Shown in pieces: positions 19,701 to 58,372 of a stretch of DNA of 64,000 nucleotides. Origin of the DNA: Psilocybe cubensis (taxonomy: Eukaryota); NCBI GenBank assembly GCA_017499595.2, contig CM039002.1, positions 1,302,001-1,366,000 of the forward strand, written 5' to 3'. The notes beneath the pieces were generated by a model. The model made no database searches. It worked only from the letters and a program-made list of their open reading frames with translations, and was not told the origin of the DNA. Position 1 is the first letter of the stretch, and each line of letters begins with the position of its first letter. A program made the translations under genes and the position numbers.

Positions 19701-20530
19701 TGCATTGCTTTAGACCATATGGCGAAGTGAGCTTGATGATTCCGCCGTTATTAAACATTACATGAAGACTGATGTACGTCATTCTCAGCCGGGCTATATA
19801 CCCAAGGATGCGTATGACATTGTGGCTTTATCGAAAACAGTTGGAGTCTGCACAAATGATGGAATCGTTACATTAGATCCGACGAAGTAAGTTATCTCAA
19901 TGGTAGTACCTACCTTTCAATTTTAACATCAACTTTCTTCTATGAAGCATTGTTCAATCTGCTGTAAATATTATCCCAGACCTCAAGGACGGACTTACCA
20001 ATGAACCTATGGCGCTGCTGAAAGCACGTCTCGAAGGCAAACGACCACTAGGATTTGTGAAGGTTGACCAAAATGAATTATTAGTGATTTATGATGGTAA
20101 CAGCAAACACTATTCATCACTTGGAAAATGTGCTCATCTGTCCCCGTTCCTGTTAGAAATGGGGTGCTACATCAATAAACACGGTGTTCCTGTCCGTCGC
20201 AGTGGATTCATCAAATGGGAGATCAAAGCTGTATCATATGCCTATCGTAACGGGCATATTTTGCTTGTCTCTCCCGAGTTTATAGAGATACGAAATGCTG
20301 GCACAGGTCGGATAGTGCAGGTCATCGAAGGGCAGGACATCAGATTGCTTTATTCGGGACCATATTCCACGAAAGATGATCCAGTGCTTGTTGTAATGCG
20401 GGGAAAAAAGGACGACAAAGAAGGCGTCAGCGAACGAATTGCAGAACTGGTGCAGACAGAAGAAATTAGCGTGATGACGCCGGCAGTGACAACTCCATCG
20501 GCATCTGTGTGGGATGAATGGGACATGTAA
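16717..20530 (+). CDS. Rho guanine nucleotide exchange factor, DH-PH-CNH architecture (Rom1/Rom2-like)
   Basis: DH motifs RQSVIFEVIKSERDYVADL and FLSRPVTKLPRLNLLL, a PH-like region (YTLYTASDALRKKW) and a C-terminal CNH-like region (FIEIRNAGTGRIVQVIEG). Confidence 0.88.
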
Positions 20531-20744
20531 ATGCGCTCTGGACTGTTGTGGCTAGTTGAACGATTGTTGGAATTTTTATTGCATCTTTATGTTTCTCTGC
20601 GATATCTCTTAAAATATTGTATCCCTTGTAGATACCCATACATGTATCATTAACGAAATTAGTTACATAGACCTGTTAATCTCTACAACGTAATACAAAA
20701 CCGGATTTCCCTGTGGTTGCTTCTTCATTATCTCCATGAAAAAT

Positions 20745-22811
20745 TCAAGAACCTGCTGCCAGTGTGCGCCGCTCAATGAATCCTTTGATGTTCGAGTGTC
20801 CCTCCAATGTGCCAAAGAAACATCGCTTGACACTATTCTCCCATACCACTACATCAAGCTCCTTTGCATAGTTAAGAACAAACTCGTAGTCGGCTTGCGA
20901 CGCAAACGCGGTGTAGAGGTAACCTGTTGAAGTAAGCCATATTTGGTATAATTTATTAAACTCATAAAATGTAGTCGCTGACCTTCCCGAGATTTTAAAC
21001 GATTCCGTTCCAGCTCCCAGAGTCTAATCTGATCCTGTACAGTGACCGGAAGCAGAGGGTTCTGGATGAAAATTTTCCGTGAACAATTTGTCAAATGATA
21101 TGAGAAACAACACACATTTTTACGCATCTGAGGATGTGCATGGGCAGTCAAGTAGCTTATAATCTGGGAGACATCAATCCCAAGTCATGACATATGGGAG
21201 AGTCGACGTAAGCTTAACCAACCTGGTCAGCAGATATTCCATTCATCAAAGCCTTCTTCACGCTGTCTCGTGTAATAGAGCCCACGACGAGGTTTGGAAA
21301 ACGATATTTCAACGAAACGAAGAGATTGAGCACAGCAGTTTGCAATGGGTTGTCTACACATGCGTGTTTAAATGAGAATCGAAGATTATTGAGACAAAGA
21401 AATTACCAGTATATGCGTAAACACGGTAATTGGTCTCTAGAATGATGAAACCTTCCTGCGGACCAGAGCTTGTGCCCCTGGCTGTAGGAAGAGGCGGGGC
21501 TGACGATGTCAAGGTAGTCGAGAGTCGCGTAGGGCTAAAGCGCCTCGATGAAGGCTTGCAGACAGAATTGAATCTTTCATATTACTTAGATAGTTACTTC
21601 AACATACCTTCCTTTGCCAGATGAGGCCATAATCTCGCAGATCCTCCAGCATGGCCTTTTGTGTCCCACTCAGATTTTCAGTTGAGTATTCCTGAGGTAT
21701 TGTAATTTAGTCCAATGCTTGAGCAATACTCAGAAAGTCGTACCCTCCCCAACTCCATTGTCGATAGCATGAATATGAATCCAAGTACCTCAACGAGGTC
21801 CATTTGTCGCTCCTATACAGAATGATTAACCCAAAAGGATTTGACGCCTGCAACACCATGTACCTCCGCCAAATGTAGGTATTGAAGCAGTAAGTCCCAA
21901 AGTTGATCGTGAGGTGAGTGAAGCAAGAACTGGAATCCAGCGGACGTAATTTGAAGTAATGAAGAGCTTGAAGGGGTGATAATGAGAGGTGGACAAATGG
22001 AAAGAAAGTGGTAAACATACTGGGACAAAGCCATTAACCCACTTCGCTGTAGAAGAAAAAGAACGCCTTGAGACGGTCTTGTGGGTGATTGGCCAGTTCC
22101 TGAAGACACCATATAGTGTAGAATAGTCTATAAAGCGTTCCAAGTTCAATTAAAGACCGTAACAACAGAAAGGTCTTTAGATACCTCCCATCGTTCCAAG
22201 GCATATCCATCCAGGGCTTCAATATCAATGCCTTGTCTTTTATCATCCTTATCAGCTGGGACACCGAAACTCCCGCTGGATCCTCTATGAATGTTTTCAG
22301 CTGCGCCAAAACTCGAAGAAAATAGACAGAGCCTTACCCTCCAGTCATCGCTTGACGCAACCCGGACTTGAATGTTCCGTTCAGTGCCAACTTGGTGGAT
22401 GACTGTGGTATAATGTTCAACCGTCCGAGAGTAGCAAGGGCATCTTCATATAGCCTAGGAAGTTATAAACAATTGTTTACGACTCTCAGCAACAGCGATC
22501 GACCGTGTACTTTTTGCCTTCGCGGATGACCCACGCCGCCATAGTTGACGCCGCTATAGCAGACTCAAGCCATAGTAGGTTCATAATTATTTGTCGTTCT
22601 AACGGTGCAAGAAGCCTATATGCATCCGTCAGCCATTATATGGCTATATAACAAGATAGACGTACCGAAATATTGACAGACATGATGATGGCCTTTGGTA
22701 CAGCCTCGTCAAAGTGTTTTGTGATTGAGATTGTAGAAAGGGCAGCAACGCATGCGGGGTGGGAGTTGAGTCTCCGTTCTCTGAATATATGTACGGTTGT
22801 GTGGAAGGCAT
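20745..22811 (-). CDS. TFB2: TFIIH subunit Tfb2 (p52/GTF2H4)
   Basis: [75 protein letters not shown]. Confidence 0.93.
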
Positions 22812-23117
22812 TACACAGAATGTATAGCACGACTCTACGAGGCAAAAACAAATCTTTGGCAAGTTACTTATTTCCTAGTCACGGGAGAATAGAACCGATT
22901 CGTTTATGAAGCCTAACTCTATGGTTAGGGTTTACGAGCGCTAACAAGTTCGACGCATAACATATTTGCTTTGAAAAATAATCATTACCACAGTCTCAAT
23001 CGAATGATTTATTATAATTTAGAGATGGTGTGCATCACAACAATAAGATAGTTCGAAGGTTATATATCTAGGCACTGGCATTCGAATTTTTGTGTCCAAT
23101 CGTTTCCAAACATCCCA

Positions 23118-24607
23118 CTACTCGGTTTCCTCAGCTTCTGTGGTGAATACCATGCAATGTCCATCATCTCCCGCACTTACGACTACAGAACCATCTAATC
23201 CAAGCGACGCACCGAGAACTGGTGCCCTGTGTCCCGTGTGTGTTCGTAGAAGCTTGCCAGTTCTGGCATCCCAAGTGCGTAATGTTTTGTCGGCGGATCC
23301 AGAAACCAAAAGATATGATTTGGGAGCAGGATGGGCGAGAAGTGTTGTAATAGCGTCCTGATAACAAGCCATAAATGTTAAATTATGAATTCTCCGACAG
23401 TTTATGAACTGACCTCGTGTTGAAGGGTAGAGCGTAACCTCATTGTGCTAAGATCCCATATGCAGGCTTTACCATCCGTGGCTCCAGTTACAACCACTCC
23501 AGAACCAGAACCACCGGCTCCTGTGAGATCGATGAACACGATGGCTTCGATGCTTTCTCCTTCGGTATGACCACCCAATGTTGAGACAATCTCTCCTTTG
23601 CTCAAACTTACGACACGGACGCCACCAGCAGCACCGCCGACGACTGCCAGTGTTGAGGATGGGTTGACAGCTACAGACGTGATTCCGTCAAGGCTGAAGC
23701 GAGCATCGTCTGGGCCCAATTTGAATAGAGGTGTAGGAGATCGAGGATCCCAAAATATTAGGAAACCTTCTTGATCTGCTGAAATGATTCTTTTTCCTAA
23801 CTATGGGTAAGTATTTAGTAAGTTTGCAGGAGACTTAAGTCTTACCATCCGGCGTAAATTCACCACAGTTAACAGGACCCATGTGGCCTGCAAAAACTTG
23901 CATAGTATTTCCGGAGGGCACTAACGTAATGGTTATATGAAATAGACAGTATAGCTAATACTATGGTACTCACGTTGCCACAGCCAAAGCGTAGAGTCGT
24001 TTGAACCAGCAAGTAACACAGAGCCTTTGGGATGCCATCTCAAAAACTGCGATCTGATTGAGCTCGGTGCTAAACGTGAGTGTAAATTAACACATACCAT
24101 GACCTCATCAGGACCTTGTAGTTCTGTCAAAAATTCCCAAGTGTTATAGTTTTCTTTTCCGACCCTTCTCCAAATTCTGATCTTGCCGTCCATGCCTCCT
24201 GTGGCGATCATCTCGCCATCTGTGCTCCAGGCCGTGCTTGTTACACTATCTGTGTGTCCCGTCAATTTAACAAGAATTTCTCCATCAGTGATATCCCATA
24301 TATATCCCAAGTCGTCTTCTCCCCCAGAAGCAGCGATAGGTTGAGTGGGATGACAGGCCACGGCAAAAACGGACGCGTTGTGCGTTGAGAAATGCTGCAC
24401 AGATATATCTTCGACGTGACCTGATGATCCTTCAGCCAAGTCACCAACGGTGTCTGCTGCTTCGTCGTCGTCGTCGTCGTCGCCCATGGGGTGGTCACCG
24501 TCGTCCTCTATTTCCTCAAGGACATCATCTTCGGTGATGAACAGCTCTTCCTGATTGTTCTCGTCCTCGAGGTCGATATCTTCAGCACGGGCTTTTCCTG
24601 AGGCCAT
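23118..24607 (-). CDS. SQT1: WD40 ribosome assembly protein Sqt1 (AAMP-like, Rpl10 chaperone)
   Basis: Acidic N-terminus, then WD repeats ASGGEDDLGYIW, GHTDSV..ATGGMDGKIRIW and LRWHPKGSVLLAGSNDSTLWLWQ. Confidence 0.85.
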
Positions 24608-25070
24608 TTTGACGCTGGTATAGTATATGGGCTCTGGTTGACGTCCAAAGGTATTTTATAAAGTGGCTGCTCAGTGCTGAGTAAACGAATTGCTGACCTG
24701 ACTGTCAAGTATTTGCGAGCGAGCTGACGAAGGTGCGATAAAAAACTGCTAAATCGGGAATTGACTCATCCACGTGGTGGGCATCTCGGGTCGGCGGGTC
24801 CTAAAAAGTTCCCGAAGAGTCTGTTGGCGGCTGCGAAGACTCTGGGTCTCAGAGATGGATTTGTTCTCGGGCTCGGAGGTCTGTGCATCGTCGGTGTGAG
24901 ATCCAGTGCATTTCGCTGGGAAGAAATGCACGGCTAGCCATCAGTGTGCGTGTATAGACCCAAGGGTCATACCAATACCCGCCGAGCCGGGATGACCAAG
25001 CAAATTATAAGATGGAGGCTCCTCCACGTCAGTCCGTCTTCCACCACTTTCTTGTTTCTCGTTTTCCATT

Positions 25071-26874
25071 ATGTTGTTTTCTTTCTCTTTGGTCGTGACG
25101 GCCTTGGTCGCGAGTGTCAGCGCGTCGAATGTCGTTGAACTTGTTCCTGACACCTTTGACGGTGTCATTGGAAAGGGCACACCTGGTTTGGTCGAGTTGT
25201 GAGTTCTCGTGCTTTACCGTGTCAATAGTATGAAAGTAGACTAAAGACATTACTTCTAGCTTTGCTCCATGGTGGTATGTACATCTGTACACCATATTCC
25301 ATCGCTTTGAATACTTATAAATCCTTCTTTCAACATAGTGGGCACTGTAAAGTGAGCAATGACGGCACAGAAGTTTCGACATTGCTGACCAATTGTTTAG
25401 AACCTTGCTCCTGTGTATGAGCAACTTGCAGATGCCTTCGTACATGCCAAAGACAAGGTTATCATTGCAAAAGTTGATGCAGATGGCGAGGGAAAACCTC
25501 TTGGGAAGAAATATGAAGTAACTGGATACCCCAGTTCGTATGACATACTCTCCATCATCACTTACCGCTAATACAACTTCTCAGCTCTGTTATGGTTCGA
25601 CGGTGAGGGGAAGCACGAAAAGTACACTGAAGGCCGTGATCTGGATAGTTTGGCCAAATTGTAAGTCATTAACTAATGAATGGCAATCATCACTTATACG
25701 CATGCACTTGAACAGCATCACCAAAAAGGTTGGCGTCAAGTCAAAGATCCCTGCTCCTCCTCCTTCAGCTGTTGTTTCCTTGGACCTTCACAACTTCGAT
25801 GAAGTTGTCATGGTTAGTTCCTTTAACAACTGAAGTTATTGGGCACATTCATTCATTTATTATACCTATAGGATCCTTCAAAAAATGTTATCGTGACTTT
25901 CACTGTAAGCATGGATCATCAGGAGGTAGCCTTTTACTCATGGAATCGTCACTAGGCTCCCTGGTGCGGCCACTGCAAAAACCTTAAGCCCCATTACGAG
26001 AAAGGTAGGTTCGCTCTTTGTCTACACTTTCAATTTTAATAGTCATGTTTTCATAGTCGCTACTACGTTTGAGCCTGAGAGCGACGTAAGTTGGAACACT
26101 TCCCAGAATTACTATGCTTAACTGATCTTGGTTTTAGTGTGTCATTGCTAACATTAACGCCGATGACCAAAAGAACCGACAAATTAGCGAAAAATACGAA
26201 GTTACTGGATTCCCCACTATCTTGTTCTTTTCCAAGAGCGACAAAGAACCCGAGGATTATAATGGCGGACGTACAGAGGCTGATATTGTCTCTTTCTTGA
26301 ACGAGAAGTGCGGTACAAAACGTGCTGTCGGTGGTGGGCTGAACGACGAGGTGCGTTCATCGATCTAGTAGACGGATGCTTTCTGGATCGTGTTGTTGAC
26401 GATTATTGTTCCTTTCTTTGTCATTTTAGGCTGGACTTGTACCCGAATTTGACTCTTTGGCACACAAATTCTTCACCGCACAATCTAGCGCCCGCGATGC
26501 AATCTACAAAGAGGCGCTCAGCCTTGCCGCCACTACCGGAGCAGCATCTAAGCACTATCTCCGTGTAATGGAGAAGGTCGCTAATGGATCTGCTGAGTAC
26601 ATCGATAAGGAGACTAAGCGGTGAGTTTTTTCGGGTCTTCAAGCGTCTCGTAATAAGAAACATGGTTCTCGTACTCTTTTTCTGCTCTCTGGCTTGACTC
26701 GGTGTTTTGAATATGGCTGACCTTTTGTCGTGTATCAGATTGAGCGGAATCCTTGCGAAGCGCAACCTTGCACCCACCAAGCTGGACGAGATCAAGGTTA
26801 AGATCAACATCCTCAAGTCCTTCGTCGAAGACAGGGCTAAAGATACCATCGCACGAGAGGAGTCGGAGCTTTGA
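25071..26874 (+). CDS. Protein disulfide isomerase, ERp38/TigA type (two thioredoxin domains plus ERp29-like C-terminal domain)
   Basis: Signal peptide MLFSFSLVVTALVASVSA. Two WCGHC motifs, the first split across micro-exons. Helical C-domain HYLRVMEK..KLDEIKVKINILKSF. Ends ..REESEL*. Confidence 0.92.
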
Positions 26875-27493
26875 GTTTGTGCATGATACCACTATAATTA
26901 CCAGTAGTCAAGTGTATATAACATCCGAGCAATTGGCGACCAGCATATTTATGTCTTAATAACCGTGTTTGCCTTTTTTCGTGTCTTGTCAACATTTTTT
27001 GGCTGTCTAGGATGGGGGTGGGAGGTGTCGATAGTGATGATGTGATTTACCCTGAAATCTCCTTCCAGGCGATTGAAAATCGCGCGAATATTTGCCTCGT
27101 GTCGATGCAATCAGGCAAGAATGCCAACGACATGCATAGACTCGTGATCAACAAAATGCCTTGAGGCATCCAGGTCCGAGGTGAGCGTCGAATTTGTATG
27201 AGGCTCTAGCAAGTTCGCCGTTTAATTGATTCGCCTTTCGAAGACCTGTAGCCACTTCAAAGTGTGGCGTTTCTACAACATTCAGCTCCTCCACCATCAG
27301 ATAGGAGTATTCTCCCGTGTAGCCATTTGGCTGGTTGAGTCCAGATCCACATTTTCCTAGCGCTTGTGTGCTTGTGTGCAGTGGGCATATAAATACAAGG
27401 TGGGTGGGAAGTGGCATGGCGGATTTCATCCCTTCACTTCTACAACTTTTGGTACACACAGAACTCATTTCTACAGATTAAACACCATTGATA

Positions 27494-28675
27494 ATGGCAC
27501 ATTGGCCCCGCTTTGGCTCGTTATCTCGTCCGCGATGGAACCCAATAGTGGGACTGCAATCCAAACCGCTCAGACACCCAGATGAAGAGGAAGGGGTGCC
27601 CTTCATCCCTCCAAGTATCAGCTCCATGGATGACCTCGAAGAGGAAGAGGAAGAAGAAGAAAAGGAGCAGAGAAGGGCTGCGAGGCCAGCACCAGCGCCG
27701 AGCCTGCCCGAGGAGCCCGTGCAACAGAAGCTGATCAAGCTCAAGGCATATCGATTCAGACCGTCCAAGAATGCCTGGAAGCACGTGGTGACGAATGTAC
27801 ACCGCGATGACGAACATGCGGTGGACGAAAAGAAGGGCCCGTGTTCTCAGCTGAGGATTATCTCGTGGAATATAGACTTTGACTCGCCGCACAAGGAGGA
27901 GCGGCTCACGGCGGCTCTGCGGCATATCGAGGAAGATGTTCTGCAGTGCAAGGAAGATGAACCCCCGGAGCCATGCTGTATCCTCCTTCAAGAGGTCAAT
28001 CAATCGGTAATGCCATCTCTTTTGCGCGACGAGTGGGTTCGGAGATGGTTTGTGGTGACGCCGTACACGAAGGACAAATGGCCAGAGGACGCAGGCTATG
28101 GGAACGTGACTCTTATTTCGCGCTCTCTCAATCTTGTTGAGAGCCACATTCTGCACTACGGCTATTCGGTTATGAGTCGCACCGCGCTGTGCGTCAAGAT
28201 CAAGCTGAATGTTCCAGGGACACAGGAGAAGAGGGTCATTTCAATCGTAAACACACATCTAGAGTCGTTGCCGCAGGGAACACCATTCAGACCAAAGCAG
28301 TTGGAGATGTGTGCACGTTTTCTACGGTTGAACGGGGTGTATGGTGGTGTGATTGCAGGAGATATGAACAGTATTGCACCTGGCGACGCAGAGATTGGCA
28401 AGAGGTTGGGCCTCAAAGACAGTTGGCGTAAAGGTGACGACTCAGACGCTGGCAAGACTTGGGGGTTCCAGGGACAAAATCAAGGCAACTACCCGACTGC
28501 AAGATTAGACAAAGTATTTTACCTACCTGGAATGGGGTATAGGGTGGACCAGCCTAAATGTATTGGCGTCGGATTAAAAATCCTGGAGTCTTCAGACGAG
28601 GCGCTATGGGTTAGTGACCACTACGGGCTAGATACCACCCTGCGGATGTTGAAGCCAAGATCGAACTCATCGTAG
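27494..28675 (+). CDS. EEP-family phosphodiesterase, TDP2-like
   Basis: Single ORF with ISWNI, LLQEV, VNTHLES, AGDMN, RLDKV and SDHYGL motifs. First ATG at 27494. Confidence 0.85.
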   Translation: MAHWPRFGSLSRPRWNPIVGLQSKPLRHPDEEEGVPFIPPSISSMDDLEEEEEEEEKEQRRAARPAPAPSLPEEPVQQKLIKLKAYRFRPSKNAWKHVVTNVHRDDEHAVDEKKGPCSQLRIISWNIDFDSPHKEERLTAALRHIEEDVLQCKEDEPPEPCCILLQEVNQSVMPSLLRDEWVRRWFVVTPYTKDKWPEDAGYGNVTLISRSLNLVESHILHYGYSVMSRTALCVKIKLNVPGTQEKRVISIVNTHLESLPQGTPFRPKQLEMCARFLRLNGVYGGVIAGDMNSIAPGDAEIGKRLGLKDSWRKGDDSDAGKTWGFQGQNQGNYPTARLDKVFYLPGMGYRVDQPKCIGVGLKILESSDEALWVSDHYGLDTTLRMLKPRSNSS

Positions 28676-29246
28676 TTTTCTGTACCTTTTCTGTTGCAAA
28701 ATTTAGGTTGATCAAGGAAGAGAATGAAGAGAGGGCATTATAGTTTGGTTTCCGTGACTCTTTTAATTAATCATGATAGTGAGTCATTCTGACTCTACAA
28801 ATGCCAAGTTGGGCGACTCTGCTGTGCGGCCTAAAAATAACGCGTATGGGGGCAAGCTTGACCCTTTGCGCAGATTGTCATTTATCGGGCAAAAATGGCC
28901 ATCAAACGAGGCTATGTGAGACCGATGTGGTGATCTTAGAGATAGCACGGGGAGAATGTGGAAGCACAGTAGATATATTTCAGTTTCTGAAGACAGAAAA
29001 GCAAGGGCAGAGTCGAGTGCTCTCAAGCTACTGAAAGAGGGGTAGGTCAAGCCTCAAGAAGAGGACAAGAGGAAGGCTCTGTGGTGACGTTGATCTCGTG
29101 CTCGAATTGATCGGGGGTATTTTTTAGAGTGTTGACACATGTTTGTTTGGTTGTAGTTTGTGTACCGCGTAGTCATAAACTCACAGTCCAGGCTTCTTCT
29201 TGTTCTTCCACGTTTGCTGAATTGCCCCTCGTTGTCGCTCTTCACG

Positions 29247-30261
29247 ATGAAGTCTGCTTTCGCTGCCGTCGCCACTGCTCTGTGCCTTTCTGCTGGTGCT
29301 CTCGCTCAAACTTCCCCTCCCTTGGTCAACACCCCGTGAGTCTGCTTCACATTCCCGTTCTTTCTTTTTCTCAATCGTACTAGTGTACCCAACCCTCCCG
29401 TTTGCCAACCCCTCCTGATCACCTGGAGCGGAGGAACTCGTACGTGCTCAGCTTCTGTTACAATCTTTCCATTCACTGATATCACTTTTGCAGCCCCATA
29501 CTTCTTGGTTCGTACACTATTCCTGCCTTCGCTGCTAGTTGACCTTATATCCATTTCGTATCTTTTATAGAGGTCCGTTGGCTTCCCCTCACTTGTTGTG
29601 CCATTGCTCAAGTTATTTCTTTAGCATTCTCCCTGGTGGACAACCCAGTGCCCCTGCCCTGCTTGACTTTGGTCAAGTCGACGGCACTTCCCTCACATGG
29701 CGTGTCAACTTCACAGTTGGTGAGTGAAACGAACTCATTCCAAGGAAATGTTTGCTCACCCTTACACCCAAGGCACCTCTCTTGGACTTGTCCTCCGTGA
29801 CAACACTGGTTTGGTTTCTCAGTCCGCACCCTTCAGCGTTGCGGCCGGCAGTAAGTTGCATCCATTCCGACGCCTCATGCCAGTGATGCTAATATGTAAT
29901 AGGCGACCTCTCTTGTCTTAGTGGCTCCGGCTCTTCGTCGACTGGCTCAAGTTCTACTGGCTCTGGCCCTGGCTCTAGCTCCAGCTCCGGCTCTAGCTCC
30001 ACCGCTGCTGTTACCAGCCCAACTTCCCCTGCGTCGACCCCCGTGACCCCGACATCCCGCTCGTACGTGTTTTATCAGCAAGTAGTACCGCATTCGTTTA
30101 CTAAATTTGTTCTGAGCAGTTCTAGCGCCTCATCGCACTCATCCGGCACCGGTACTTCTTCTTCAGCCACCAATGCCCCTAGCTCTGCAGCATCCATTGA
30201 GAGCGTCCAGATGGGCCTTGTTGGTGCTCTTGGGGCAGCCCTCGTCGCTCTTTTGGCTTGA
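29247..30261 (+). CDS. Secreted Ser/Thr-rich, probably GPI-anchored cell-wall protein
   Basis: Signal peptide MKSAFAAVATALCLSAGALA, a CQPLLITWSGGTPPYFL domain, a Ser/Gly/Thr-rich stalk and a hydrophobic C-terminus (GLVGALGAALVALLA*). Confidence 0.85.
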
Positions 30262-45291: not shown

Positions 45292-47237
45292 ATGGCTCCC
45301 TCCAAACCGGCCAAGAACATATCCCTCAGAGTACCGAGACACAATGCGCAGCGGATCAACGTCAAGCTGTCGGCGGAGGTGCAGAACCAGGCTAGAATGC
45401 AGCGGGTGCTGGTAGACGTCGTCCAGCCGAGCTCGAGGCTGTCGCAGGCCATTGTGTGTAAACTGAGTGTTATCTGTTTTTTTAAGGCGCTGAAATGGGT
45501 ATATCTAGGAAAGCGCATCGGATTGGAATTCATTGCTTATGACAGCTAGAGCCGAACGCGGACCACAATGGGACGTTGGCACACAACAGTCCGTCACCTT
45601 TGCTGCTAAATTGTTATAGTCATATTTCTAACAAACATCCAATATTCAGATTCCTAGTCGACAAATACTCTGATTTATACTATGACCCCACACCTCTGCT
45701 AGAGACAGTTAAAAAGTTGACAGAAGACGAGCACGGACCTGAATCAGGCTTGCAGAGCCAACAACAGCACCAGCACCAGCAACACCAGCATCAGCAGTCG
45801 CACCGCGACCACCGGGAGCACCAGCTTCCATCGCACCATCCTCCGCACGCGCCGTCCTCCTTCCAGCCCTCCCTCCCACCTCGGCACCAAACGCCGATGC
45901 GGGACAGAGACTTTGGGATGGCGCAGCACATGGCGCGGGACCAGTCCCCGCACCGACATCCAGGCGGCGGCGGTGGTGGTGGTGGTGGAGGAGGCCCCGG
46001 TGGCCCTGCGCAGGGGAACTACCCATACCCGCCAGGGATGAACATGCGTGGGCCGTCGAGCGGTGGGTTCCCTGGTGGAGGAGGACCATCGGGCGGCTCT
46101 CCGTTCAACCCAGCGGCGAATAGGTATATGGCGGCGGATCCTACGACACCAATACGCGGAGGAAGTGGGATGGGGATCTCGTCTCCTATAGGTGGTGATG
46201 GTATGCGACCTAACATGGGTGGTGGAGGAATGGGAGGAATGGGAGGAGGAATGGGACCTGCAGGGATGGGAGGGGGGATGGGAGGAGGAATGGGACCAAG
46301 TGGCATGGGAGGTATGGGAGGGGGCATGGGAGGAGTTGGCATGGGAGGTGGTGGTATGGGCGCAGGCGGCATGGGAGGCGGCGGTATGGGATCAGGCGGC
46401 ATGGGAGGCGGCGGGATGGGATCAGGGGGTATGGGTGGTGGGGGAATGGCAGGAGGTGGTATGGGCAACATGGGAGGAGGAATGGGCAACATCAGTGGAG
46501 GAGGCATGGGCAATATGGGGGTAGCAGGAATGGGCAACATGGGCGGAGCTGGAGGTATGGGCAATATCGGCGGCGGCGGCGGCGGGATGGGGAATATTTC
46601 AGGGGGCGGGATGGGTCCTATGGCCGGAGGGATGGGCAACATGTCAGGCGGAGGAATGGGCAACATCGGTCCCATGGGTGGAGGCGGCATGATGAATATG
46701 GGAGGTGGTATGCCCAATATGGCCGATCGAACAATGGCTGGTATGGGTGCAAACACCATGGGAGGAGGCGGCGGCATGGGTGGTATGGGCGGCATGGGCA
46801 TGGGCGGTATGGACGGCGCAGGGATGGGCAACATGGGCGGAGGTATGGGTGGCGGCATGGGCGGAAGCGGCGGCATGAACGCAGGCATGGGCACCGGTGT
46901 GGGTCCCATGGGCGTCGGCATGGGCGTCGGTATGAACTCGGGCATGGGAGGCATCAACTCGGGCATGGGCGGGATGGGCGGCGGGATGGGCGGGATGAAC
47001 GCTGGGATGGGCGGGATGAGTGCTGGGATGGGAGGCATGAACCCCGGGATGGGCGGCGGCGGGATGAACGCAGGCGTCGGCGGGATGGGCATGGGTGTCG
47101 GCGGGATGGGCATGGGCGGGATGGGAGGCGGGATGGGCATGGACCACGCGAACCCGATGGCTGCAGGCAACATGGGGATGGGCATGAACATGTCTCCGAG
47201 GGGGATGAACAGAGGCATGCCAGACGGTTACAACTGA
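45292..47237 (+). CDS. Protein with a ~100-aa N-terminal domain, a Q/H tract and a very long Gly/Met low-complexity domain
   Basis: Spliced N-terminus MAPSKPAKNISLRVP..SQAIV|SRAERGPQWDVGTQ|QFLVDKYSDLYYDPTPLLE. The open last exon to TGA 47237 is dominated by GGM/GMG repeats with varied codons. Confidence 0.8.
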
Positions 47238-47299
47238 TACATAATCGATATACCCTTCATTATTCCCCCTCTTTTTATTTTATTTTCGCTAATGTACTC

Positions 47300-50150
47300 A
47301 TGTATATCCTCTACTGCAGCTATCCTGTCTCTTTCATATCTCCTGATCTTCTTGTTTTTCTTTTCTTTTTACCACTTACCCAACCAAAAAAAAGTGTAAA
47401 CAAATCGCGCGCGCAACTTAAGTATCACACAGAGATGTAGAGGAGAAAAAAAGCTGCTCATGGGTGCGTTAAAAACCCACTGGGAAAAGTATAAAAACCC
47501 AATGGGAAAAGCTACCAAGGCAGGGACATGACAGACAAAAAAATCCACCGAGATCCTCAACATCAACAGAAGCAGAACTGAATCCCATTCCTCCCACTTC
47601 CATCCACACAAGGTCGGGGTGTCGAACGGAGGGTGGTAAATTGTCGAGTCGAGTCGAGTCGAGTAAGCGAGTTTCTTCGTCCTCCAAATCAACATGCCCA
47701 TCCATCCCGCCAATGCCAATGCCAATGCCAATGCCAAACCATCCCACTACAACCCAGCCCAACACCAAGGAAACAAAAAGTAAAAACAAAACAACAAACA
47801 ACGTACAAACTACCGAAAAAATCATCGTATATCTTGAGGAGATCCTTGGGTGCGTCAGCGTCAGCGTCAATTTTGCTTTTTTTTCTTCTCATTTCATTCT
47901 TTTTCTTTCGGGTTTTCTCGTAGATCTCTCAGTGTAGCACACAATGAACGATATTTCGAATAAAACTCAGCGGATTTGTCGCAGGTGTCAGCCCAGAAAA
48001 ATGACAACCCATCATCGCCTAGCCGCGCCGTAACAGCCAGAGAAGTCAAAGTCGAACACACGTCCTCGCCGTTCTCGGTGCCACGGCGCATCTACACGAG
48101 ACAGGTGCCGTAGGCTTGGGGATGGGGGATTTCATTCACTAAAAGCGCAGTTCGTCAGATTATATATGGGGTGAGGAGGATTGAAGCTGGAGTGTTACGC
48201 ACCGTATGTTGAAGAGCCTCTTGTATGGCTGTCGGATCGTCAAAAATTAAAAAGCAAAAAGCGAAAAAGAGAAAAAACTCAAAAAACGTCGAAGGAGGAT
48301 ACGCGGCACCAGAACCAGAACCAGCACCAGAAGAAGAACCAGAAAAAGAACCCAAAGGAACTCAGAGACTCAAGAGGTTGATAATGGAGTCGTTGCAGTC
48401 TTTTCTTTCTAGGCGTTGTCGTTGTCGTTGTCGTCGTTGTGGATGTCGTCGTCGTCGTCGTTGCGGATGATGCTCTCACTCATTCTCTCACTCATTCGCA
48501 ATCTCACTCACTCACTCACACCAAAGACTCATCGAACAAAAAAAAAACCTATATCCAAAAAAAGCAAAATCAGAATCCAGATTCCAAAACGAGGCCTCCT
48601 TAAAACAAAGAGAAAGCAAGAAAGCAAGAAAAAAGCGAGAAGGGAAGGAGGGAAGGAAGAAAGAAAGAAAGAAAGCCACGTACATGAAACGCTCACCGGT
48701 CTTGCGTGGCGTTTATCTTTTTCCTTTTTCGTTTTTCGTTTGTGTCTGCGTGTCTGCGTGGCAGTGATATGGCTCTATCATCAAAGGTAAAAAAGCGCGT
48801 ACACCAACGAGAACAAGAATGAGAAAGACGGAAGATGGAGGAGCGTACCTTTCGAGGCATATGTGCCAGCGGCTCCCCATGGGGAATATGTTCGTTTGTT
48901 TTTTTTTTGGTTTCGGTTTTTTTTGTTTCTGATTTTGGTTTTGGTTCCTCTTCGTCATCGTTTTTTTTTCCTTGTTTTTTTTGGCTTGTTGGTGTCGCGT
49001 TTCTCTTGATCTTGATCTTGCTTTGTTCCTTTTCGCTTCTTTTCGCTTCGTTTCGTTTCGTGGTGTGCTAAAATCTTGAAGGCAGTGATATGACTCTACA
49101 TTCCCATCGCATCGAAAGACATCAGCACAGCGACAACAAAACCTTCAAAAAAAGAAAAGAAAAGAAAAGAAAAGGAAAAAACAGAAAAACGAAAACGAAG
49201 AAAAACGAAGAAAAGCAGAAAAACAGAAAAGAGAAAAGGGAAAAAACGAAAAACGAAAAAAGAAGAAAAAACTCGCCATAGAGTCATATATGCCATCTGT
49301 CCTCCTCCGTTTCATTTTTCAGTTTTATTTTTTAATTCGTTTGTTTGTTTGTTTGCTTGCTTGCTTTATGTTTTCCTTTTGGTTTCTCGTTTCTCGTTTC
49401 TTTTTTCTTGATCTGTTTCGTTGTCGTCCTCGCTTTTTTTTCGTTTCGTTTTATCTTGATCCTCATATTCCGCCTTATCAATCCCCATCTCCTTTATTAT
49501 TATTATTTTTCTTGATGTTTCATCCGTTTATCTTTTATCTTGACGTTCACATTTTATATTTGCTGGGCTACAACACAAGAAACCCACGCGTCAGACACCC
49601 AGAAAACACAACACAAAGTAAGAAAAGGAAAGGACACATACAAAGAGAGAGAGAGGGCCATGTCAGTGGTATGTAGAAACGACGACGCACTGTATCATGA
49701 TGATCGATAGACGTCAGCCATCTAGTATGGACAAGGGCTAGGTAGCCAGCAGAAGACGTACCTTCCGTATTCTTATTCCGTATCATTCGTCTTCGATTGT
49801 GTGTATGTGGAACCCTTTCTCTTGTTTCTATTGAGCGATGTTGTCGTTATTATTATTATTATTATTGTTGTTGGCGATGTCGATGTCGATGTCGATGTCG
49901 AGGTCCATGGCGATGTCGAAGTCGAGTACGATATCGCCTTTACCCAAAACCCACCAACGCCCAAGGACACAAACAAGGCGACACCGAAATGCCACCCCGC
50001 CCACGCCCCAAAGCAAAGGCAAGCAAAGAGTAAAGTGAAAGGCCAACCCCCGCCCTACTAGGTACAAGGCGGGAGAAGAAAAGAAAAAGAAACGTAGAAC
50101 GTAGAAGGTGGAAGGTAGGAAGAAGGGGAAGAGTTGTGAAGAAAGAAGAA
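47300..50150 (-). ncRNA. Candidate long structured non-coding RNA (ends approximate)
   Basis: TATATAAA at 50169-50176 (-) followed by a CT-rich tract. Intron 49690-49761 (GTACGT..GCTGAC..CAG). Minus-strand G-U hairpin at 49938-50035, duplicated stems at 48759-48868 and 49081-49294, and no credible ORF. Confidence 0.55.
47640..49900. repeat. Dense microsatellites and A-rich/T-rich tracts
   Basis: (GAGTC)n near 47646-47664, (CAATGC)n near 47711-47736, (CGATGT)n near 49875-49900, (TAT)n near 49848-49866, and alternating A-rich and T-rich blocks at 48540-49560. Confidence 0.85.
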
Positions 50151-50168
50151 ATGACAGAGGAAGGGGGG

Positions 50169-50176
50169 TTTATATA
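50169..50176 (-). promoter_or_regulatory. TATA box
   Basis: TATATAAA on the minus strand, followed by a pyrimidine-rich initiation-like tract. Confidence 0.6.
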
Positions 50177-50704
50177 CACCTGTGGCTGACTGCTGATCGT
50201 AATCCTGTATATCTGTATATCTCATTTGGGAGGCTGAGGCTTGAGGCGTGAGGCGTGAGGCTGACTCGGTCGTGCATACACACACACAACATACACACAA
50301 AAGTTATTTTTGGAAATGTGTGGCACACAAACCGGCAAAGTCGGGTCCAAGACCAATGCCGTCGCGATGTCGGATTTCGAATGCGTCCGGGATTAGAACT
50401 GGTTAATGGAGGGGGGTAAAAATCATTGAAGTTTGACCTGTTGAACTCGCTCGTTCAAAATTGGAATAAAAGGACACTGTAACTTTCGGAGGGCGCGTAT
50501 GGCTTGATCTTGATCGCGGCACGACAGGATCGCAACGTGCTTCCATGTTCAAAGAATCAATCTAGGAAATACAGAAATAAATAAACAATATAAAATTTTG
50601 ATTAGCATTGTGTGGGGGTTTGATACAAGTGAGTGAGTAGGGGGGTTAGATGCACGAGTTAAATAGCCCGATTAGTAGGGAGGAAGAAATGGTAAGTTGT
50701 GTGT

Positions 50705-52106
50705 CTAGACGTGGGCGGGTTTTGCTTTTTCTTCGGTTTCAGGGTCGACCAGCATATGCCATAGTTCAGGCCCGTCGCGGATTAAAGCCTTGTTGGGGAC
50801 GGACGGACGGACGTCAGCTAGCGAATAAAAAAGGCCAACGAGGGTGGCTTACAATGACAACTTCAACAGCAATGAGAGCAATGATAATAAGTTCCATCGA
50901 GTGCGTTGATGACTGGCAAAATAAAGTTGTTCAAAGGCTGTCTTTACACCTAGAAAAAAGGTGTACACACCTCGGTCAGCAATTGACGAAGCATCGATTG
51001 AGCTTCAGCCGCATAAGTAATCTTGTCATTGAAGGATGCGGTTCGCGACGTGACTTCCAGCGCATCACTCAAAGACTTGAAGTGAGCTGTAAATTTCAAA
51101 ATAAGCATTCACATCCAAGAATAATCGTCCGTGCAAGCTCTACCTTCCAACTCGGGCTCCGACCAATAAAAGTCTGGTACTTCGGTAAAGTTCTCCCTGT
51201 TAAGATTCAAAAGCTGCCTAAACTTCATGAGTTCGCCGAGTTTCTTGATAAGCTGTGTGCGCCCCATGCCAGGTTTGCCTGTCTGCGCCAGAGTATGTGG
51301 AAGCAATGCCATAGAGCTCAGATACTGGTCCAGAGACACCTCCAGCGCTGAGAGCGCCGTCGAACGAGAAAGGGCCTGGGAGAACGCGTATCGGGCCAGA
51401 AGAGTCTCCTCCGGGAATGCCATGGGAGGAAGAACCTTGGGCAGCAATTCAGGCTCGTTAAGTGGTTCAGCCTGGCCGAGGATAATCAAGTCTCCCTGCA
51501 ATCTCGTTTTTCTAGTAAACACGTTCAGCACACATCCTGAAAATAACAGTACACAGACACGCACTCGATAGGATCCACCACGAATTCCAATTCCTCAGTT
51601 TCCGGTTCTCCCAAGGGAGAGACTTCCATGCCTCTAGCGCGGTCAATCACGTCGCTGACGAATGTCTTCGCCTCCGTCTCTCCAAGTCCCCAACACACAA
51701 TATTGCCGTTCGAAAATACAAAGATCTCGCCTTCTTTCCCTGCTTCGCCCCATTTCGGAATCCACCAAGACTCGTGCAGCGCCTGAGACCGAGCAGGCAG
51801 GTCGGGATGAGAACGGAGACGCGAGAGGATATATCGTTCCGCAGTGGCGAGAGTCGTGACGGGTTGTATGGTACCCCTCGTTGGTGTTGGATTTGAGCGA
51901 ATAGGCAACGACTCGGAAGCTGAACGGCGTAGAGGTGTTGTCGACTTTGGTTTAGCCTTACCGTCAGACAAAGGATTCGCGGACGCAGCAGCAGGCTTTT
52001 TCGCGGAATAGCATCGTGTAGAAACCCATTGAGGAGAGAAAATAGCTCTGGTCAAACTTTGACCAAATCTTGGAATACTTGTGGAAGAAAGCCTAAGAGA
52101 AGCCAT
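50705..52106 (-). CDS. DUF155 protein of the RMND1/Sif2/Rmd family, probably mitochondrial (Mrx10-like)
   Basis: Presequence-like N-terminus, GEIFVFSNGNIVCWG, AFSQALSRSTALSALE, PDFYWSEPELE, INDKITYA and a C-terminal TM segment MELIIIALIAVEV. Confidence 0.87.
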
Positions 52107-52289
52107 AACAAATTGGCCGGAACGAGATTGATTATATCATTACCCAGCCGAGCCGTGATGTCGTCTCACTCCGGCGACCCGTCTGCATTACACTACAAAA
52201 TGTAAGTAACTCAGACAATTCACACAAATAATAGGCGTCTCAAACCAAGTAAAATTTTTGTTCTACTCGATACATGTACGTAAAATTGG

Positions 52290-53000
52290 CCTAGTACATG
52301 GGAGACACCAGATGACCTGGGGTAATTGATTTGAATATTCTGGAATCCACACCATGATGGACAGTCGGCCCATACAACAATCCTCTGCTTTCACATCCCA
52401 GTCTCGACGCCGCAAAGGCCCGGACAAGAGTCGTCAACAACTGCAATGGCGCGGATATCCTTTCCGCCCACCAGGCTTTGCGCCCTTTCCCCCTTCCGAC
52501 ACTCGAGCACACTGAGGACCAAAGCCACAAGTGATACCTTGTATGCCCCGCTGGAGCACCACGTGAAAAACTAGATCCATTCATCAGACCAGGCATCGCA
52601 GGAATGATTAGAAAACCAACTAACCCCAGCCGAAACGCCTAAACAGGCGTCTCCATGAAGCCACTAGTCTCATCGAGACCAGCGGACACAGGATACCGAT
52701 AGTAACAAAAGACGATAGTAAAACGGGGACTAAATCCTTCAAAGGCGATATGAGTAAATACAATAAAAAGCAGTAAGACTGGAGATACGAACCAAAAATC
52801 CATCAACCAGCTAGGGATGCCGACAATTCCCTTAGCTTTACTGTGATGACATAGAAACGATTATCCGACACTAGGACTTCGACTCATAACGATCGGGAGA
52901 ACACCATACTGATACCTCTGTGAAAGAAAAGATCAGGAAAGCGATTAGACGATGTGGGGGATAACATACTCAGACATGGTGGGGTTTACGACCAAAGAAT
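52290..53000 (-). ncRNA. Candidate short spliced structured RNA or micropeptide gene (ends approximate)
   Basis: TATATAAA at 53021-53028 (-). Three canonical-looking introns (52918-52969, 52841-52909, 52737-52792). Only tiny ORFs from ATG 52977. G-U-containing hairpins at 52661-52685 and 52632-52653. Confidence 0.45.
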
Positions 53001-53191
53001 TCTCCCATACTCCAAGCCCCTTTATATAGCCTGCCTTTTTGTTTCGGGCAGGTCATTTCTGACGCGTGATCCATATTCAGTGGCGTCTTCTTACCGGCCC
53101 GGCGCTCCATAATTTAGGGGCTCCCGCCAAAGGCTCTTTGTAGAATGCATTCAAAGTGTAGAAAAGCTTTCAAAGGCTCTTTGTCTACAGT

Positions 53192-55006
53192 TCATACAGT
53201 CTCAAACCATCCTGCCTGTATCATTTCCTGAGCTAACCCTTCCCACCCTCGCCGTCGAGCTTTTCTTCCCGAAAGTTCGGTTGCAAACCTGTATCGGACT
53301 ATCAATATCGCGTTACATGCTCTTGAATGGACAAACAGACCTTAAGCATTCATCAAGCTTCCATCTCCCTCGACCATCTTCACCCGCCGAACTAAAGTCA
53401 TCTTCTCCACTCCATGCAGGGGTATAAGGGAACCCGGGACATATCCTCCGGCTCAGGGCGTAAATCATCCCTGAGATGAAAGCGTCTTGAGCACCAACTT
53501 CGTCCACCACCCCATCATCTGCATCATGATCACGGCCAGGTCTCTCAGTTCCCTGCGAATCATTGTCATCTTCTTCATGGGTCGTAGTGAACTGGCTACT
53601 TTCATTTGTACCCTGTCCTTGGCGCGTGTGCGACCTTATCTGGTGTTGGTGGTACATATGAGGCTCGCTGATATCTGTGTCCGAGAAATAGTTGCTTTCT
53701 CTCGTGTAGCCTCTCGATGATGGAGTCCTACTCCTTCCATCGGCCCAAAAGTCACTCCCACTTCGCACAGATCGAAGCTCAGAGTTACGCTGCGGGAATG
53801 GAGTCCGTAGGTGGTCGACATCTGTGTTCTTGATTTGCACGGGAGGCGGCTTGTCCTCGACCCAGCCCGAGCTCTGGAAATACTCCTTCGTGGGGAGAGA
53901 CAGCACTGCGCCGCCTTCTTGGCCCCAGTGAGCGATAAGCAACGCATGCGGAGGAGCGCTAGACGCAAGCGATAACAGAAATGCACGCGGCGTAGTTTCA
54001 TAATGCGGTGAGTTTGCCTGTGCGTAGTGTTTATTGAAAAACAACACGTCGGCGTGGGGGATAAGCTAGATCAAGCATTAATCGTACAATCATTCCTCAA
54101 GTCAGAGAAGATAGACACACAGCTTCCACGCCCTGTTTTCCTTTCCTTCCGACGTCTATACTGAATACACAGTGACTTCTCCACTTCCTCTCCCGCGCCA
54201 GCCCATCCAGACCAGTGATATTATTCAGCGTCGTCTTCACTGACCTTCCTTCAAAGTGTAACCAATCGAAAGGGGCCGGGCTGTTTGGATTATGAAATAC
54301 AGGGTTTACCGGGACACGAGGGCCCGATTGAGATGGCCTGGGTGTAGGGTTAGTTGTGGCAAGGGAGGCCGAAGAGTAATTAGGTATCGTTGGGCTGATG
54401 TTAGGTGTCGTCTGCGGGTAATTCTCAGGTGCGAGCAAAGGCCCCAGTAAAGATATGAAGTCTTCATGTGTGATATCTGGTAATGGATTATGGTTCACGA
54501 CAGTTCGTGTATTATTCTCGGCTTCAAACGAGCATTAGATTCTGCGATGTTTAGACAAGCTTGAACACACCTGAATGAAGCACCCAAGCACTAGGAACAC
54601 CCGCATCCCGCCAGATTTTGCAGTACTTCGTGACAACACCCTCATTTTCCAGATCCTTCAGAACCATGCGCCCATCTTCGTTTCCGCCCAGAGGCGCGAC
54701 AAGCACGGCTTCCACTCCAGGGAATTGAGCCAGAAGCGATAAAAGCTAAAACGTAAAGAAGAATCCAAAGTTTAGTTCATCTCAGTCTTCGAACTTGATT
54801 GAGTTACTCACCATGTTCGCCGATCCCCCTCGCGTCTTCTGGACCGAATGGGCCCGCACCACGGAAGAGGGTGCGGGATGGCATGGTACATGCAGTGTAT
54901 GTGTCTGAAAGAGTGTTCCCGAAGCAACAATTCGGAGGGGTTTGAAAGTTGGTTGCTGGAAATATGGGTTGTTATTATCGTCCGATCGTTCGCGTCGTGA
55001 TTTCAT
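53192..55006 (-). CDS. PfkB/ribokinase-fold protein (ketohexokinase-like) with a degenerate C-terminal motif
   Basis: RGGSAN, FDWLHFEGR, HWGQEGG and VVDEVGAQDAFISGMIY, with long insertions. Confidence 0.8.
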
Positions 55007-57030: not shown

Positions 57031-58372
57031 ATGACCACGCTTTCATCTACCACGTTCGAGCTTGACTCACCTCCAGTAGACGAGTCTGTTAATGACCCAC
57101 TGTATAATGAACGATTCGATGCTTTCCTACAGAAGAGCCTCGCAGATATCAAAGCTTTTGCTGATCGAGAGCTGCGTTCATATGATGAGGTCTCTAAGAC
57201 CTCCTGATAGAGTAGTTGGTATTCTGACTGTACTCTGCACAGACAAGGCGGCGCGTTGCTGAATGGCATGCTAAACACCTCTTTCCTCAGTCGCCTTCAT
57301 CCCTTGCTTCGGGAAAGAGTCCGCCTCAAGGTATGTTGTGCATCTCGTTTGTATCAGATGATTTCTTTGATTCTTTTCTAGTGAGATCTATTCTTTGCGA
57401 TGCTTCACATATCCTCGAATCCCTATCTGCGGTCTCAAATACACAGTCATTTTTATTGGCAATAAATCCCAGCGATCCATCTGATCAGGGATTCTTAGGA
57501 GGATCTGTGGTCGGTAGGGAGTTCTGGCGTGGACTGCGAGGTGGAGGCGTCCAAGGGGCCAAAGCTTTCAAAGTATACTGCGCCAATCTCATATCACAGG
57601 CGGAGGCAAGCCAAAACCCCTCGAATGCTGGTAAATCTGAACGTAATGTATCTACACCTCCTGCCAAATCCATCAAATCCGAACTTTATGAAAGCGTGCG
57701 CAACGCCCTCAGGTACGGATCTGTCATTTTAACTTACTAGTTAATCACAAGCCGAACAACTCCTTTTATAGGCTGGCGAGCGGCGTCCGCAATGCAGAAA
57801 TGAAATGGACGAATCCAGAGAGATTAGATGTATACGGAGTCCGACTAGAGGGCTGGCCAGAAGGTGTCCCTGCCCAGAATCCCTCGACTCTGAGGGTTAA
57901 TCAGAACAAAATGCTGCTCGAGGCAATGCAAAACGGCTCGATGAAGTTTGTTAAACTTGTCCCTGAACCTAATGAATCACACGACGCGTCAACATCAGGC
58001 CAGACTGAAGCTGCGAATGAAGATTTTTCGTGGGCTTATGATGCGGATGCTCTCACAACGTCGACTTCGCCTTCTCCTTCTCCTGGCCCAAATCCTGCCT
58101 CTTCAACTTTCTCCAAAGCTTCCACTGTGACTCCAGTGCCAACGACAATGATCGATAACAATGATCCATGGGCCCTGACACCGTCCATATCCGTTGAACC
58201 TGACGAAGCGAATTCTTCTTCTTCTTATGATGTAAACTATGCTTGGGAAGACAGCTTCAATGAGGAAGCCGTAAATACCCTGGGAGAAGATTGGGACGAT
58301 GGAGTTATCCTTGAGCGGCCGAGAAAGCGGCAACGAAGCGAAGAGCCTCCTTATTCTGGGTTTACAGAATAG
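57031..58372 (+). CDS. Hypothetical protein, multi-exon
   Basis: Spliceable exons with GFLGGSVVGREFWRGLRGGG and AEMKWTNP..YGVRLEGWPEGVP..NPS motifs, and a basic RPRKRQR near the C-terminus. Confidence 0.7.

Follow-up and report, generated by a model that had tools for sequence, protein, structure and literature searches.

A probable gene for a spliced, repeat-built long intergenic non-coding RNA between two convergent genes of Psilocybe cubensis

Introduction

In the fungus Psilocybe cubensis we analyzed a window of 64,000 nucleotides (nt; 64 kilobases, kb) of contig CM039002.1 (GenBank assembly GCA_017499595.2, positions 1,302,001 to 1,366,000) and, within this window, a gap of 3467 nt that lies between the stop codon of a gene for a Gly/Met-rich protein (TGA, 47235-47237, plus strand) and the stop codon of a DUF155 gene (50705-50707, minus strand). 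Our findings make it likely that this gap holds a gene for a minus-strand long intergenic non-coding RNA (lincRNA) that resembles a messenger RNA (mRNA), which we call the gap RNA. The DUF155 gene belongs to the RMND1/Sif2 family; its product matches Pfam PF02582 with 100 bits, and its coding sequence follows from four introns seen in two assemblies, X8 and X10, described below. A first-pass annotation, made from the sequence alone, requires correction here, as the DUF155 gene lies on the minus strand and the two flanking genes are therefore convergent. With DUF155 on the minus strand and the Gly/Met-rich gene on the plus strand, a minus-strand transcript of the gap follows DUF155 in tandem and runs head-on towards the Gly/Met-rich gene.

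The DNA of the gap contains many microsatellites and blocks skewed towards purines or pyrimidines. When the window is divided into 852 bins of 150 nt, extreme purine content is confined to 12 of them, seven of which fall within the gap. No paralogue of the gap was found by blastn against the rest of the 64-kb window. The Gly/Met-rich gene (45543-47237, plus strand) itself contains about 900 nt of imperfect GGNATG-type repeats and matches no Pfam family.

Results

Transcription and splicing

A search of public sequencing runs with positions 47240-50900 listed no matching run that is recorded as RNA. It did list X8 and X10, two samples of one study with 18-20 megabases (Mb) of contigs and presumably derived from RNA, which contained 0.73 and 0.60 of the sampled words, respectively. 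Together with the DNA runs X1 and X9, they were mapped on 47100-53400. In X8 and X10, seven short introns with CT..AC ends are missing from the flanking genes (four in DUF155, two within 52571-52791 and one at 53287-53338), whereas X1 and X9 skip none of the introns of the flanking genes or of the gap, from which we conclude that X8 and X10 are complementary DNA (cDNA) assemblies. The gap sequence is also present in DNA runs labelled as organisms A, B and C, with shares of 0.47-1.00.

The gap is transcribed from the minus strand into a non-coding RNA of seven exons, from which six introns are removed. The central record is an X10 contig of 1817 nt (record 4) that lies in the gap, matches the window with 0 mismatches and skips 48139-48202 (64 nt), 48775-48848 (74 nt), 49096-49276 (181 nt), 49568-49641 (74 nt) and 49690-49761 (72 nt). 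These five listed joints have CT..AC or CT..GC ends on the plus strand, and the corresponding dinucleotides on the minus strand, GT or GC..AG, indicate that the RNA comes from that strand. A sixth intron, of 135 nt, was obtained from contig arithmetic: record 4 has 228 letters between 48548 and 48986 where 363 are expected, leaving 135 missing; one of its aligned pieces stops exactly at 48548; and a GTACGT and a TAG stand exactly 135 nt apart. Alignment rows at the masked repeat 48603-48685 had been dropped, and intron 5 falls there. Depth bins agree with the six-intron model to a nucleotide or two. In X8, a contig of 2920 nt (record 7) is continuous over 47066-48138 and then skips intron 6 and continues as a loose end, whose first 30 letters are 48204-48233. 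Between 48155 and 50475 no part of X8 is aligned, although its contig goes on.

The first-pass annotation had proposed a spliced, minus-strand, non-coding transcript of about 2.9 kb with a 72-nt intron at 49690-49761 and a second branch point and acceptor near 49568-49595. The cDNA is mRNA-like, of about that extent and without coding capacity; the 72-nt intron is an exact X10 joint that is absent from X1 and X9; and the second signal, a branch-like CTGAC followed by TAG, is the 3' end of the real intron 49568-49641.

Read along the minus strand, the RNA begins with exon 1 (49762-50131, at least 370 nt; record 4 positions 1448-1817, in agreement with the depth bins), which contains a CU-rich leader, a G/U-rich hairpin, and (CGACAU)n and (AAU)n tracts. 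Intron 1 (49690-49761, 72 nt, GTACGT..CTGAC..CAG; X10 joint 49689 to 49762) leads to exon 2 (49642-49689, 48 nt), which is delimited by two joints, and intron 2 (49568-49641, 74 nt, GTATGT..CTGAC..TAG; X10 joint 49567 to 49642) leads to exon 3 (49277-49567, 291 nt, 55% A and 75% purine), a piece of record 4. Intron 3 (49096-49276, 181 nt, 62% U) is of the GC..AG type (GCGAGT..TAG) and corresponds to the X10 joint 49095 to 49277 with its CT..GC ends. It is followed by exon 4 (48849-49095, 247 nt, 51% A), placed by pieces and joints of record 4, and by intron 4 (48775-48848, 74 nt, GTACGC..TAG; X10 joint 48774 to 48849). Exon 5 would occupy 48684-48774 (91 nt), as judged from the record arithmetic and a depth bin, 48577-48787, with 89 unmasked nt, and intron 5 (GTACGT..TAG, 53% U), for which there is no listed joint, would occupy 48549-48683 (135 nt). 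Exon 6 (48203-48548, 346 nt, also from record 4) is U-rich with (GAGU)n and (CGA)n tracts; intron 6 (48139-48202, 64 nt, GTGCGT..CTGAC..TAG) appears both as the X10 joint 48138 to 48203 and at the X8 loose end; and exon 7 (47716-48138, at least 423 nt) is covered by record 4 and by the single X8 contig record 7. Five of the six introns are thus GT..AG and one is GC..AG, with 5' sites of the GTRNGT or GCGAGT type, YAG at their 3' ends and, in several cases, CTGAC-type branch motifs.

From 50131 to 47716 the spliced RNA measures 1816 nt, which is a minimum, and it would measure 2292 nt if continued to 47240. Exon 7 may extend towards 47240 and so overlap the 3' untranslated region (UTR) of the Gly/Met-rich gene. 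One X8 contig runs from the last 172 coding nt of that gene into the spliced RNA, though a contig across both genes proves neither a single transcript nor an overlap of two RNAs. X10 has no cover at 47521-47715 and at about 50498-50657, which we did not use as evidence; nor did we use the depths of the gap-RNA contigs (170 in X10 and 630 in X8, versus 31 and 64 for the DUF155 contig), as depth cannot rank genes.

Coding capacity and family searches

Before or after splicing, neither strand of the gap holds a credible open reading frame (ORF), in line with the first-pass annotation. The longest ATG-initiated ORF of the spliced RNA encodes 65 residues, compared with a mean of 60.5 in shuffled sequences, and 35% of 500 shuffles reached at least 65; as a positive control, the neighboring DUF155 exons yielded an ORF of 389 residues. 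Exon 3 has stops in all three frames, and none of the 28 stop-to-stop ORFs of the gap on both strands reached the Pfam cut-off, with sub-threshold low-complexity matches only.

These data also bear on the possibility that the gap RNA encodes one or several very small proteins, such as the 65-residue ORF at 48091-47897 or a 26-residue ORF at 49908. ORFs of 26 to 65 residues do exist in the spliced RNA, and many fungal micropeptides have, to our knowledge, no homologues. The lengths of these ORFs, however, equal those of shuffles; the ORFs of exons 1-5 are read-outs of low-complexity repeats, including the 26-residue one that is opened by the first of the 26 ATGs in the spliced RNA; and the 65-residue ORF stands behind more than 20 upstream AUGs, matches no Pfam family and had no homologue in a search of proteins of 35-114 residues. 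We therefore consider a coding role very improbable.

The first-pass annotation had recognized no known RNA family, and a search of Rfam 15 gave the same answer: no family reached its gathering score, and sub-threshold matches lay in repeats only. The best of them, to the Plasmodium RNase P, scored 43.1 bits where 100 are required, in the A-rich tract that corresponds to intron 3, and the remaining matches were at about 20 bits or less (SNORD69, 20.1 against 37; MIR530, 18.9 against 85).

Two specific identities were considered. A telomerase RNA is rejected: taking the telomere repeat of this fungus to be TTAGGG, we scanned both strands of 47240-50700 and found no 8-mer of (CCCTAA)n; a single 7-mer match to the telomere template at 50649 lies outside the gap transcript. 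For a small nucleolar RNA (snoRNA) host gene, no snoRNA match came near its Rfam threshold, though divergent fungal snoRNAs could escape Rfam.

Promoter and the relation to DUF155

The first-pass annotation had pointed to a motif followed by a CT-rich tract, and both are present on the minus strand as a putative promoter, the motif being a TATA box, TATATAAA, at 50176-50169 with the tract downstream of it. By arithmetic, record 4 of X10 extends up to 50131, which is 38 nt downstream of the TATA box and inside the CT-rich tract. We infer that the gap RNA has this promoter of its own, though contigs cannot prove a start.

The main rival explanation is that the spliced RNA is an intron-containing 3' read-through extension of the DUF155 transcript and not the product of a separate gene. 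DUF155 and the gap RNA lie in tandem on the same strand; the DUF155 contig lies upstream and comes, with its end at 50613, to within about 440-480 nt of the gap RNA; a separate X10 contig (record 5) covers 50108-50497 between the two; and the 2920-nt X8 contig exceeds, by arithmetic, the summed exons up to 50131 by about 454 nt. A consensus TATA box and CT-rich tract 38 nt upstream of the start of the X10 contig nevertheless argue for separate initiation, and no contig in X8 or X10 joins DUF155 with the spliced RNA. Moreover, read-through would put the DUF155 stop codon upstream of six exon junctions, and a stop codon so placed is a target of nonsense-mediated decay. On balance we regard a read-through extension as unlikely.

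Base composition and RNA structure

In the sense of the RNA, exons 3, 4 and 5 consist of 75, 69 and 64% purine, respectively (43-55% A), and introns 2-5 of 21-34% purine and 45-62% U. The first-pass annotation had described alternating A-rich and T-rich blocks closed by short GC stems such as GCCACG/CGTGGC; both the blocks and this stem exist, but what the blocks coincide with is the pattern of exons and introns. Purine-rich exonic enhancers and pyrimidine-rich introns are part of the general logic of splicing, and we infer that, in the middle of the gene, exons and introns are defined by base composition. The GCCACG/CGTGGC stem of 6 base pairs (bp) at 48675-48710 on the minus strand straddles the 5' splice site of intron 5 (-12.4 kcal/mol for 48720-48660), and it can form only in the pre-RNA because splicing removes its arm at 48675-48680 together with intron 5.

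The gap RNA was also said to be highly structured, a description that holds for a few local hairpins but not overall. The folding z-score of the whole spliced RNA is -1.75 in the sense orientation (0 of 20 shuffles as low) and -0.25 in antisense, and across 22 windows of 200 nt the mean z is -0.07, with only three or four windows at or below -2.8. One hairpin that stands out is the G-U-dependent one noticed in the first pass, which lies at 49955-50015 on the minus strand, has 25 bp of which 14 are G-U, and folds with -31.6 kcal/mol versus -6.1 kcal/mol on the plus strand. It is present in both the minimum free energy and the centroid structures of exon 1, whose z is -3.13 in sense versus -1.85 in antisense.

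The duplicated stems of the first-pass annotation proved to be an 18-nt motif on the minus strand with two copies, both of which lie at splice junctions. Searching the 64 kb with up to 3 mismatches returned 2 matches, and 0 of 100 shuffles gave 2. Each copy covers the final three bases of an intron together with 15 bases at the start of the following exon: copy 1 (49081-49098) joins the end of intron 3 to the start of exon 4, and copy 2 (48760-48777) joins the end of intron 4 to the start of exon 5. The pairing partner of copy 1 is the end of exon 3 (49279-49297), so that a hairpin of -17.5 kcal/mol spans the junction of exons 3 and 4, and the 200-nt window around it has a z of -4.17; copy 2 has its partner at the end of exon 4 (48851-48870), which gives a junction hairpin of -16.7 kcal/mol, and its arms pair in the unspliced fold too, looping out intron 4. 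The inverted-repeat helix thus bridges an intron in the pre-RNA and becomes a junction-spanning hairpin after splicing. The copies are spaced at 321 nt, as if an internal duplication had given the gene an additional exon-intron unit.

Such hairpins raise the possibility that the gap RNA is a precursor or scaffold, in which hairpins are processed to small RNAs or bound by proteins and the repeats serve as spacers. The transcript does contain a long stable hairpin of the kind that a hairpin precursor would need, the 25-bp stem; stable strand-specific hairpins with local z of -3.1 to -4.2 occur on the sense strand only; and the junction hairpin is present twice. Against this, global folding is unremarkable, and the local z-scores are overstated by whole-exon shuffles because the arms are locally G/U-rich, as both arms of the G-U hairpin are, or repeat-derived. 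No snoRNA or microRNA match in Rfam came near its threshold (SNORD69 and MIR530 being the best), no conservation backs any helix, and a non-compensatory change distinguishes one copy of the junction hairpin from the other. A precursor or scaffold role consequently appears highly unlikely to us.

Relatives and age

For comparison with relatives, we used 72 loci from metagenome contigs that were scanned with DUF155 exon 2; in the closest of them, this exon is 85-93% identical in protein and 73-77% in DNA. Four loci (L001, L004, L005 and L006) share synteny with the window on either side, and in all four the Gly/Met-rich gene is convergent with DUF155 at an estimated distance of about 240-360 nt from stop to stop, versus 3467 nt here. 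The estimates were made between the last DUF155 residues with a match and the end of the Gly/Met frame. Matches to the N-terminal part of the Gly/Met-rich protein occur in nine of the 72 loci, and those in the remaining five are short, on the other strand and about 3.1-3.2 kb away. L003, L010 and L011 have a different gene after DUF155.

The short intergenic distance in the four syntenic relatives implies that the gap RNA gene lies in a lineage-specific insertion of about 3.2 kb, and since this microsatellite-rich DNA has no counterpart in those relatives, the gene is probably young relative to lineages that are about 75% identical in coding DNA. Across the 72 loci, blastn and tblastx found similarity to the gap only in a 58-nt element, an A-rich match in L072 and the coding end of the Gly/Met-rich gene; L072 is a distant locus and its match is of low complexity. 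The motif of the inverted-repeat cassette gave 0 matches in the 72 loci. The first-pass annotation had envisaged conserved helices joined by fast-evolving spacers, an idea that this comparison does not support: apart from the 58-nt element and the one low-complexity match, the 72 loci show no similarity to the exons or introns, and the four syntenic relatives have no room for the gap RNA gene.

The 58-nt element (47454-47532), a tandem pair of units of about 20 nt with a CCCANTGGG palindrome, is the only block of the gap with a relative elsewhere. It is 93-95% identical to L008 10639-10697, where about 1.5 copies are present, and it was found in this one locus of the 72; its surroundings cannot be aligned, and the rest of the L008 interval is unrelated DNA of normal complexity. 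The element lies 217-295 nt past the stop codon of the Gly/Met-rich gene, where an X10 contig ends (47520), and it may be part of the gap RNA or of the 3' UTR of the Gly/Met-rich gene. L008 also carries, downstream of DUF155 and in place of the Gly/Met-rich gene, a second, inverted copy of the gene that occupies 57094-57958 of the window; the copies of this gene lie at about 11214-12264 and about 2000-2500 of L008, and the neighborhood is rearranged there.

The repeat part of the Gly/Met-rich gene is apparently much shorter in L001, L004, L005 and L006. As this part and the adjoining gap are both longer here, simple repeats would have expanded the two of them in this lineage.

Compared with the window, X9 (organism C) differs at 4 of about 1411 positions in the parts of the gap RNA gene at 47602-48863 and 49633-49834, and at 15 of 668 in DUF155, in a comparison that counted only pieces at least 95% alike and in which X9 was without 30% of the words. 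These counts are at most a weak hint of constraint on the gap RNA.

A second spliced transcript upstream of DUF155

Just upstream of DUF155, the minus strand carries a second spliced transcript without an evident ORF (52200-53030), with a TATA-like motif near 53025 and two introns, 52571-52624 and 52736/7-52791/2, that are seen in both X8 and X10. Its word depths of about 10,000-30,000 are the highest of the mapped stretch, although depth is a poor measure. The longest ATG-initiated ORF encodes 61 residues with the two splices, and a third intron right behind the first ATG is possible, judging from the sequence. No Rfam match was found at E<=1, and among the tblastx matches listed for L001, which is syntenic on both sides, none of at least 45 bits fell in this interval. 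Between this abundant transcript and the start of DUF155, a block of about 100-116 nt (52230-52343) is 84-88% identical in L004, L005, L006 and L007, 79% in L013 and 74% in L010, although the DUF155 region overall is only 69-70% identical. By its sequence, this block is a conserved non-coding element that would belong to the 3' end of the abundant RNA or to the DUF155 promoter. A further block of 29 nt (52971-52999) is common to the window, L005 and L007.

Discussion

The gap RNA has the properties of a lincRNA. It exceeds 200 nt and lies between protein genes, as documented by contigs of 1817 nt (X10) and 2920 nt (X8); spliceosomal introns are removed from it, five at listed joints and one obtained by arithmetic; and ORF length, Pfam and homologue searches, all of them sequence-based, found no coding capacity. 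We accordingly interpret it as probably a genuine, new and young fungal lincRNA, and a limited literature search found no published description of it. Transcription would start some 440 nt past the point where the DUF155 transcript ends, at a TATA and CT-rich promoter of its own, and would approach the convergent Gly/Met-rich gene from its 3' end. Six spliceosomal introns are removed, which leaves an RNA of at least 1816 nt with seven exons and no surviving reading frame. A duplicated inverted-repeat cassette bridges two of the introns and, after splicing, forms a hairpin across each exon junction.

Several points weigh against this interpretation. All evidence for the RNA comes from two samples of one study, and assembled contigs show neither the ends of an RNA nor its level or minor isoforms, and indicate its strand only via splice motifs. 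Five of the six introns rest on one X10 contig, and the X8 contig was aligned only as far as intron 6. The X10 contig at 50108-50497 reaches upstream of the TATA box, and the 2920-nt X8 contig, if colinear, would extend to about 50585. Translation of short ORFs is possible. Finally, the relatives are distant, with 73-77% nucleotide identity in DUF155 exon 2, and the gene is young only relative to them.

What the gap RNA does can be discussed only with low certainty. Our leading guess, in which we place slightly less than even confidence, is that the transcript is young and has hardly any sequence-specific function, if any. A cis effect, exerted by transcription that enters or overlaps the 3' end of the Gly/Met-rich gene, is a doubtful alternative that we entertain because one X8 contig spans the coding end of that gene and the spliced RNA, although this overlap is unproven. 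It is rather unlikely that the gap RNA acts in trans as a protein-binding RNA that uses its A/G-rich repeats, and small-RNA or micropeptide roles take up the remainder of our estimate.

The composition of the gap also invites a speculative account of its origin, which we hold only tentatively: a complete multi-intron gene may have arisen de novo within a microsatellite expansion between the two convergent genes, purine blocks becoming exons and U-rich blocks introns, with one cassette duplicated and the RNA now under selection. If this account is true, the gap would show the birth of a gene and of introns from low-complexity DNA, caught in the act. As a seven-exon, repeat-built RNA missing from syntenic relatives, the gap RNA is a tractable case for studying how genes for long non-coding RNAs (lncRNAs) and their introns originate, how far base composition alone defines fungal splicing, and whether young transcripts influence a convergent neighbor. 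It also indicates that a reader of raw sequence could find what is probably a real, unannotated gene, exact intron included, in DNA that gene finders would call junk. It opens no new category, since fungal lincRNAs are already catalogued by the hundreds.

Comparison with known systems places the gap RNA more closely. Fungal telomerase RNA, a large non-coding product of RNA polymerase II, resembles it in size class and in having no ORF, but the gap RNA is without a CCCTAA-type template of at least 8 nt. The snoRNA host genes of the GAS5/UHG type produce multi-exon spliced transcripts with short, non-conserved ORFs, as the gap RNA gene does; unlike theirs, its introns are without a snoRNA-like match, and four of the six are only 64-74 nt long while the two long ones are U-rich repeats. 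Introner elements and elements that resemble miniature inverted-repeat transposable elements (MITEs) generate introns and have many near-identical copies in a genome. Two introns of the gap RNA are likewise flanked by the same short inverted repeat in a duplicated cassette; in contrast to introners, the repeat arms stay in the exons, and the 64 kb and 72 loci scanned held only two copies, both in this gene. As with fungal convergent or natural antisense transcripts such as those of PMC5515960 and PMC5414199, transcription of the gap RNA approaches a convergent protein gene from its 3' end, but more than 1.8 kb of its gene is intergenic and antisense to nothing.

The closest likeness is to the lincRNAs of Ganoderma lucidum, of which 402 are catalogued, 200-1966 nt long and averaging 609 nt (PMC4059649), and fungal lncRNAs have on average fewer exons than mRNAs, according to a review (PMC12566771). 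The gap RNA is, like the G. lucidum lincRNAs, intergenic, mRNA-like, non-coding, known only from data of the RNA-sequencing type and poorly conserved, and it differs from them in its spliced length of at least 1816 nt, its seven exons and its almost wholly microsatellite-like, repeat-built sequence. Likened to these RNAs by its features and not by its sequence, the gap RNA stands at the long, exon-rich extreme of the fungal lincRNA catalogues.

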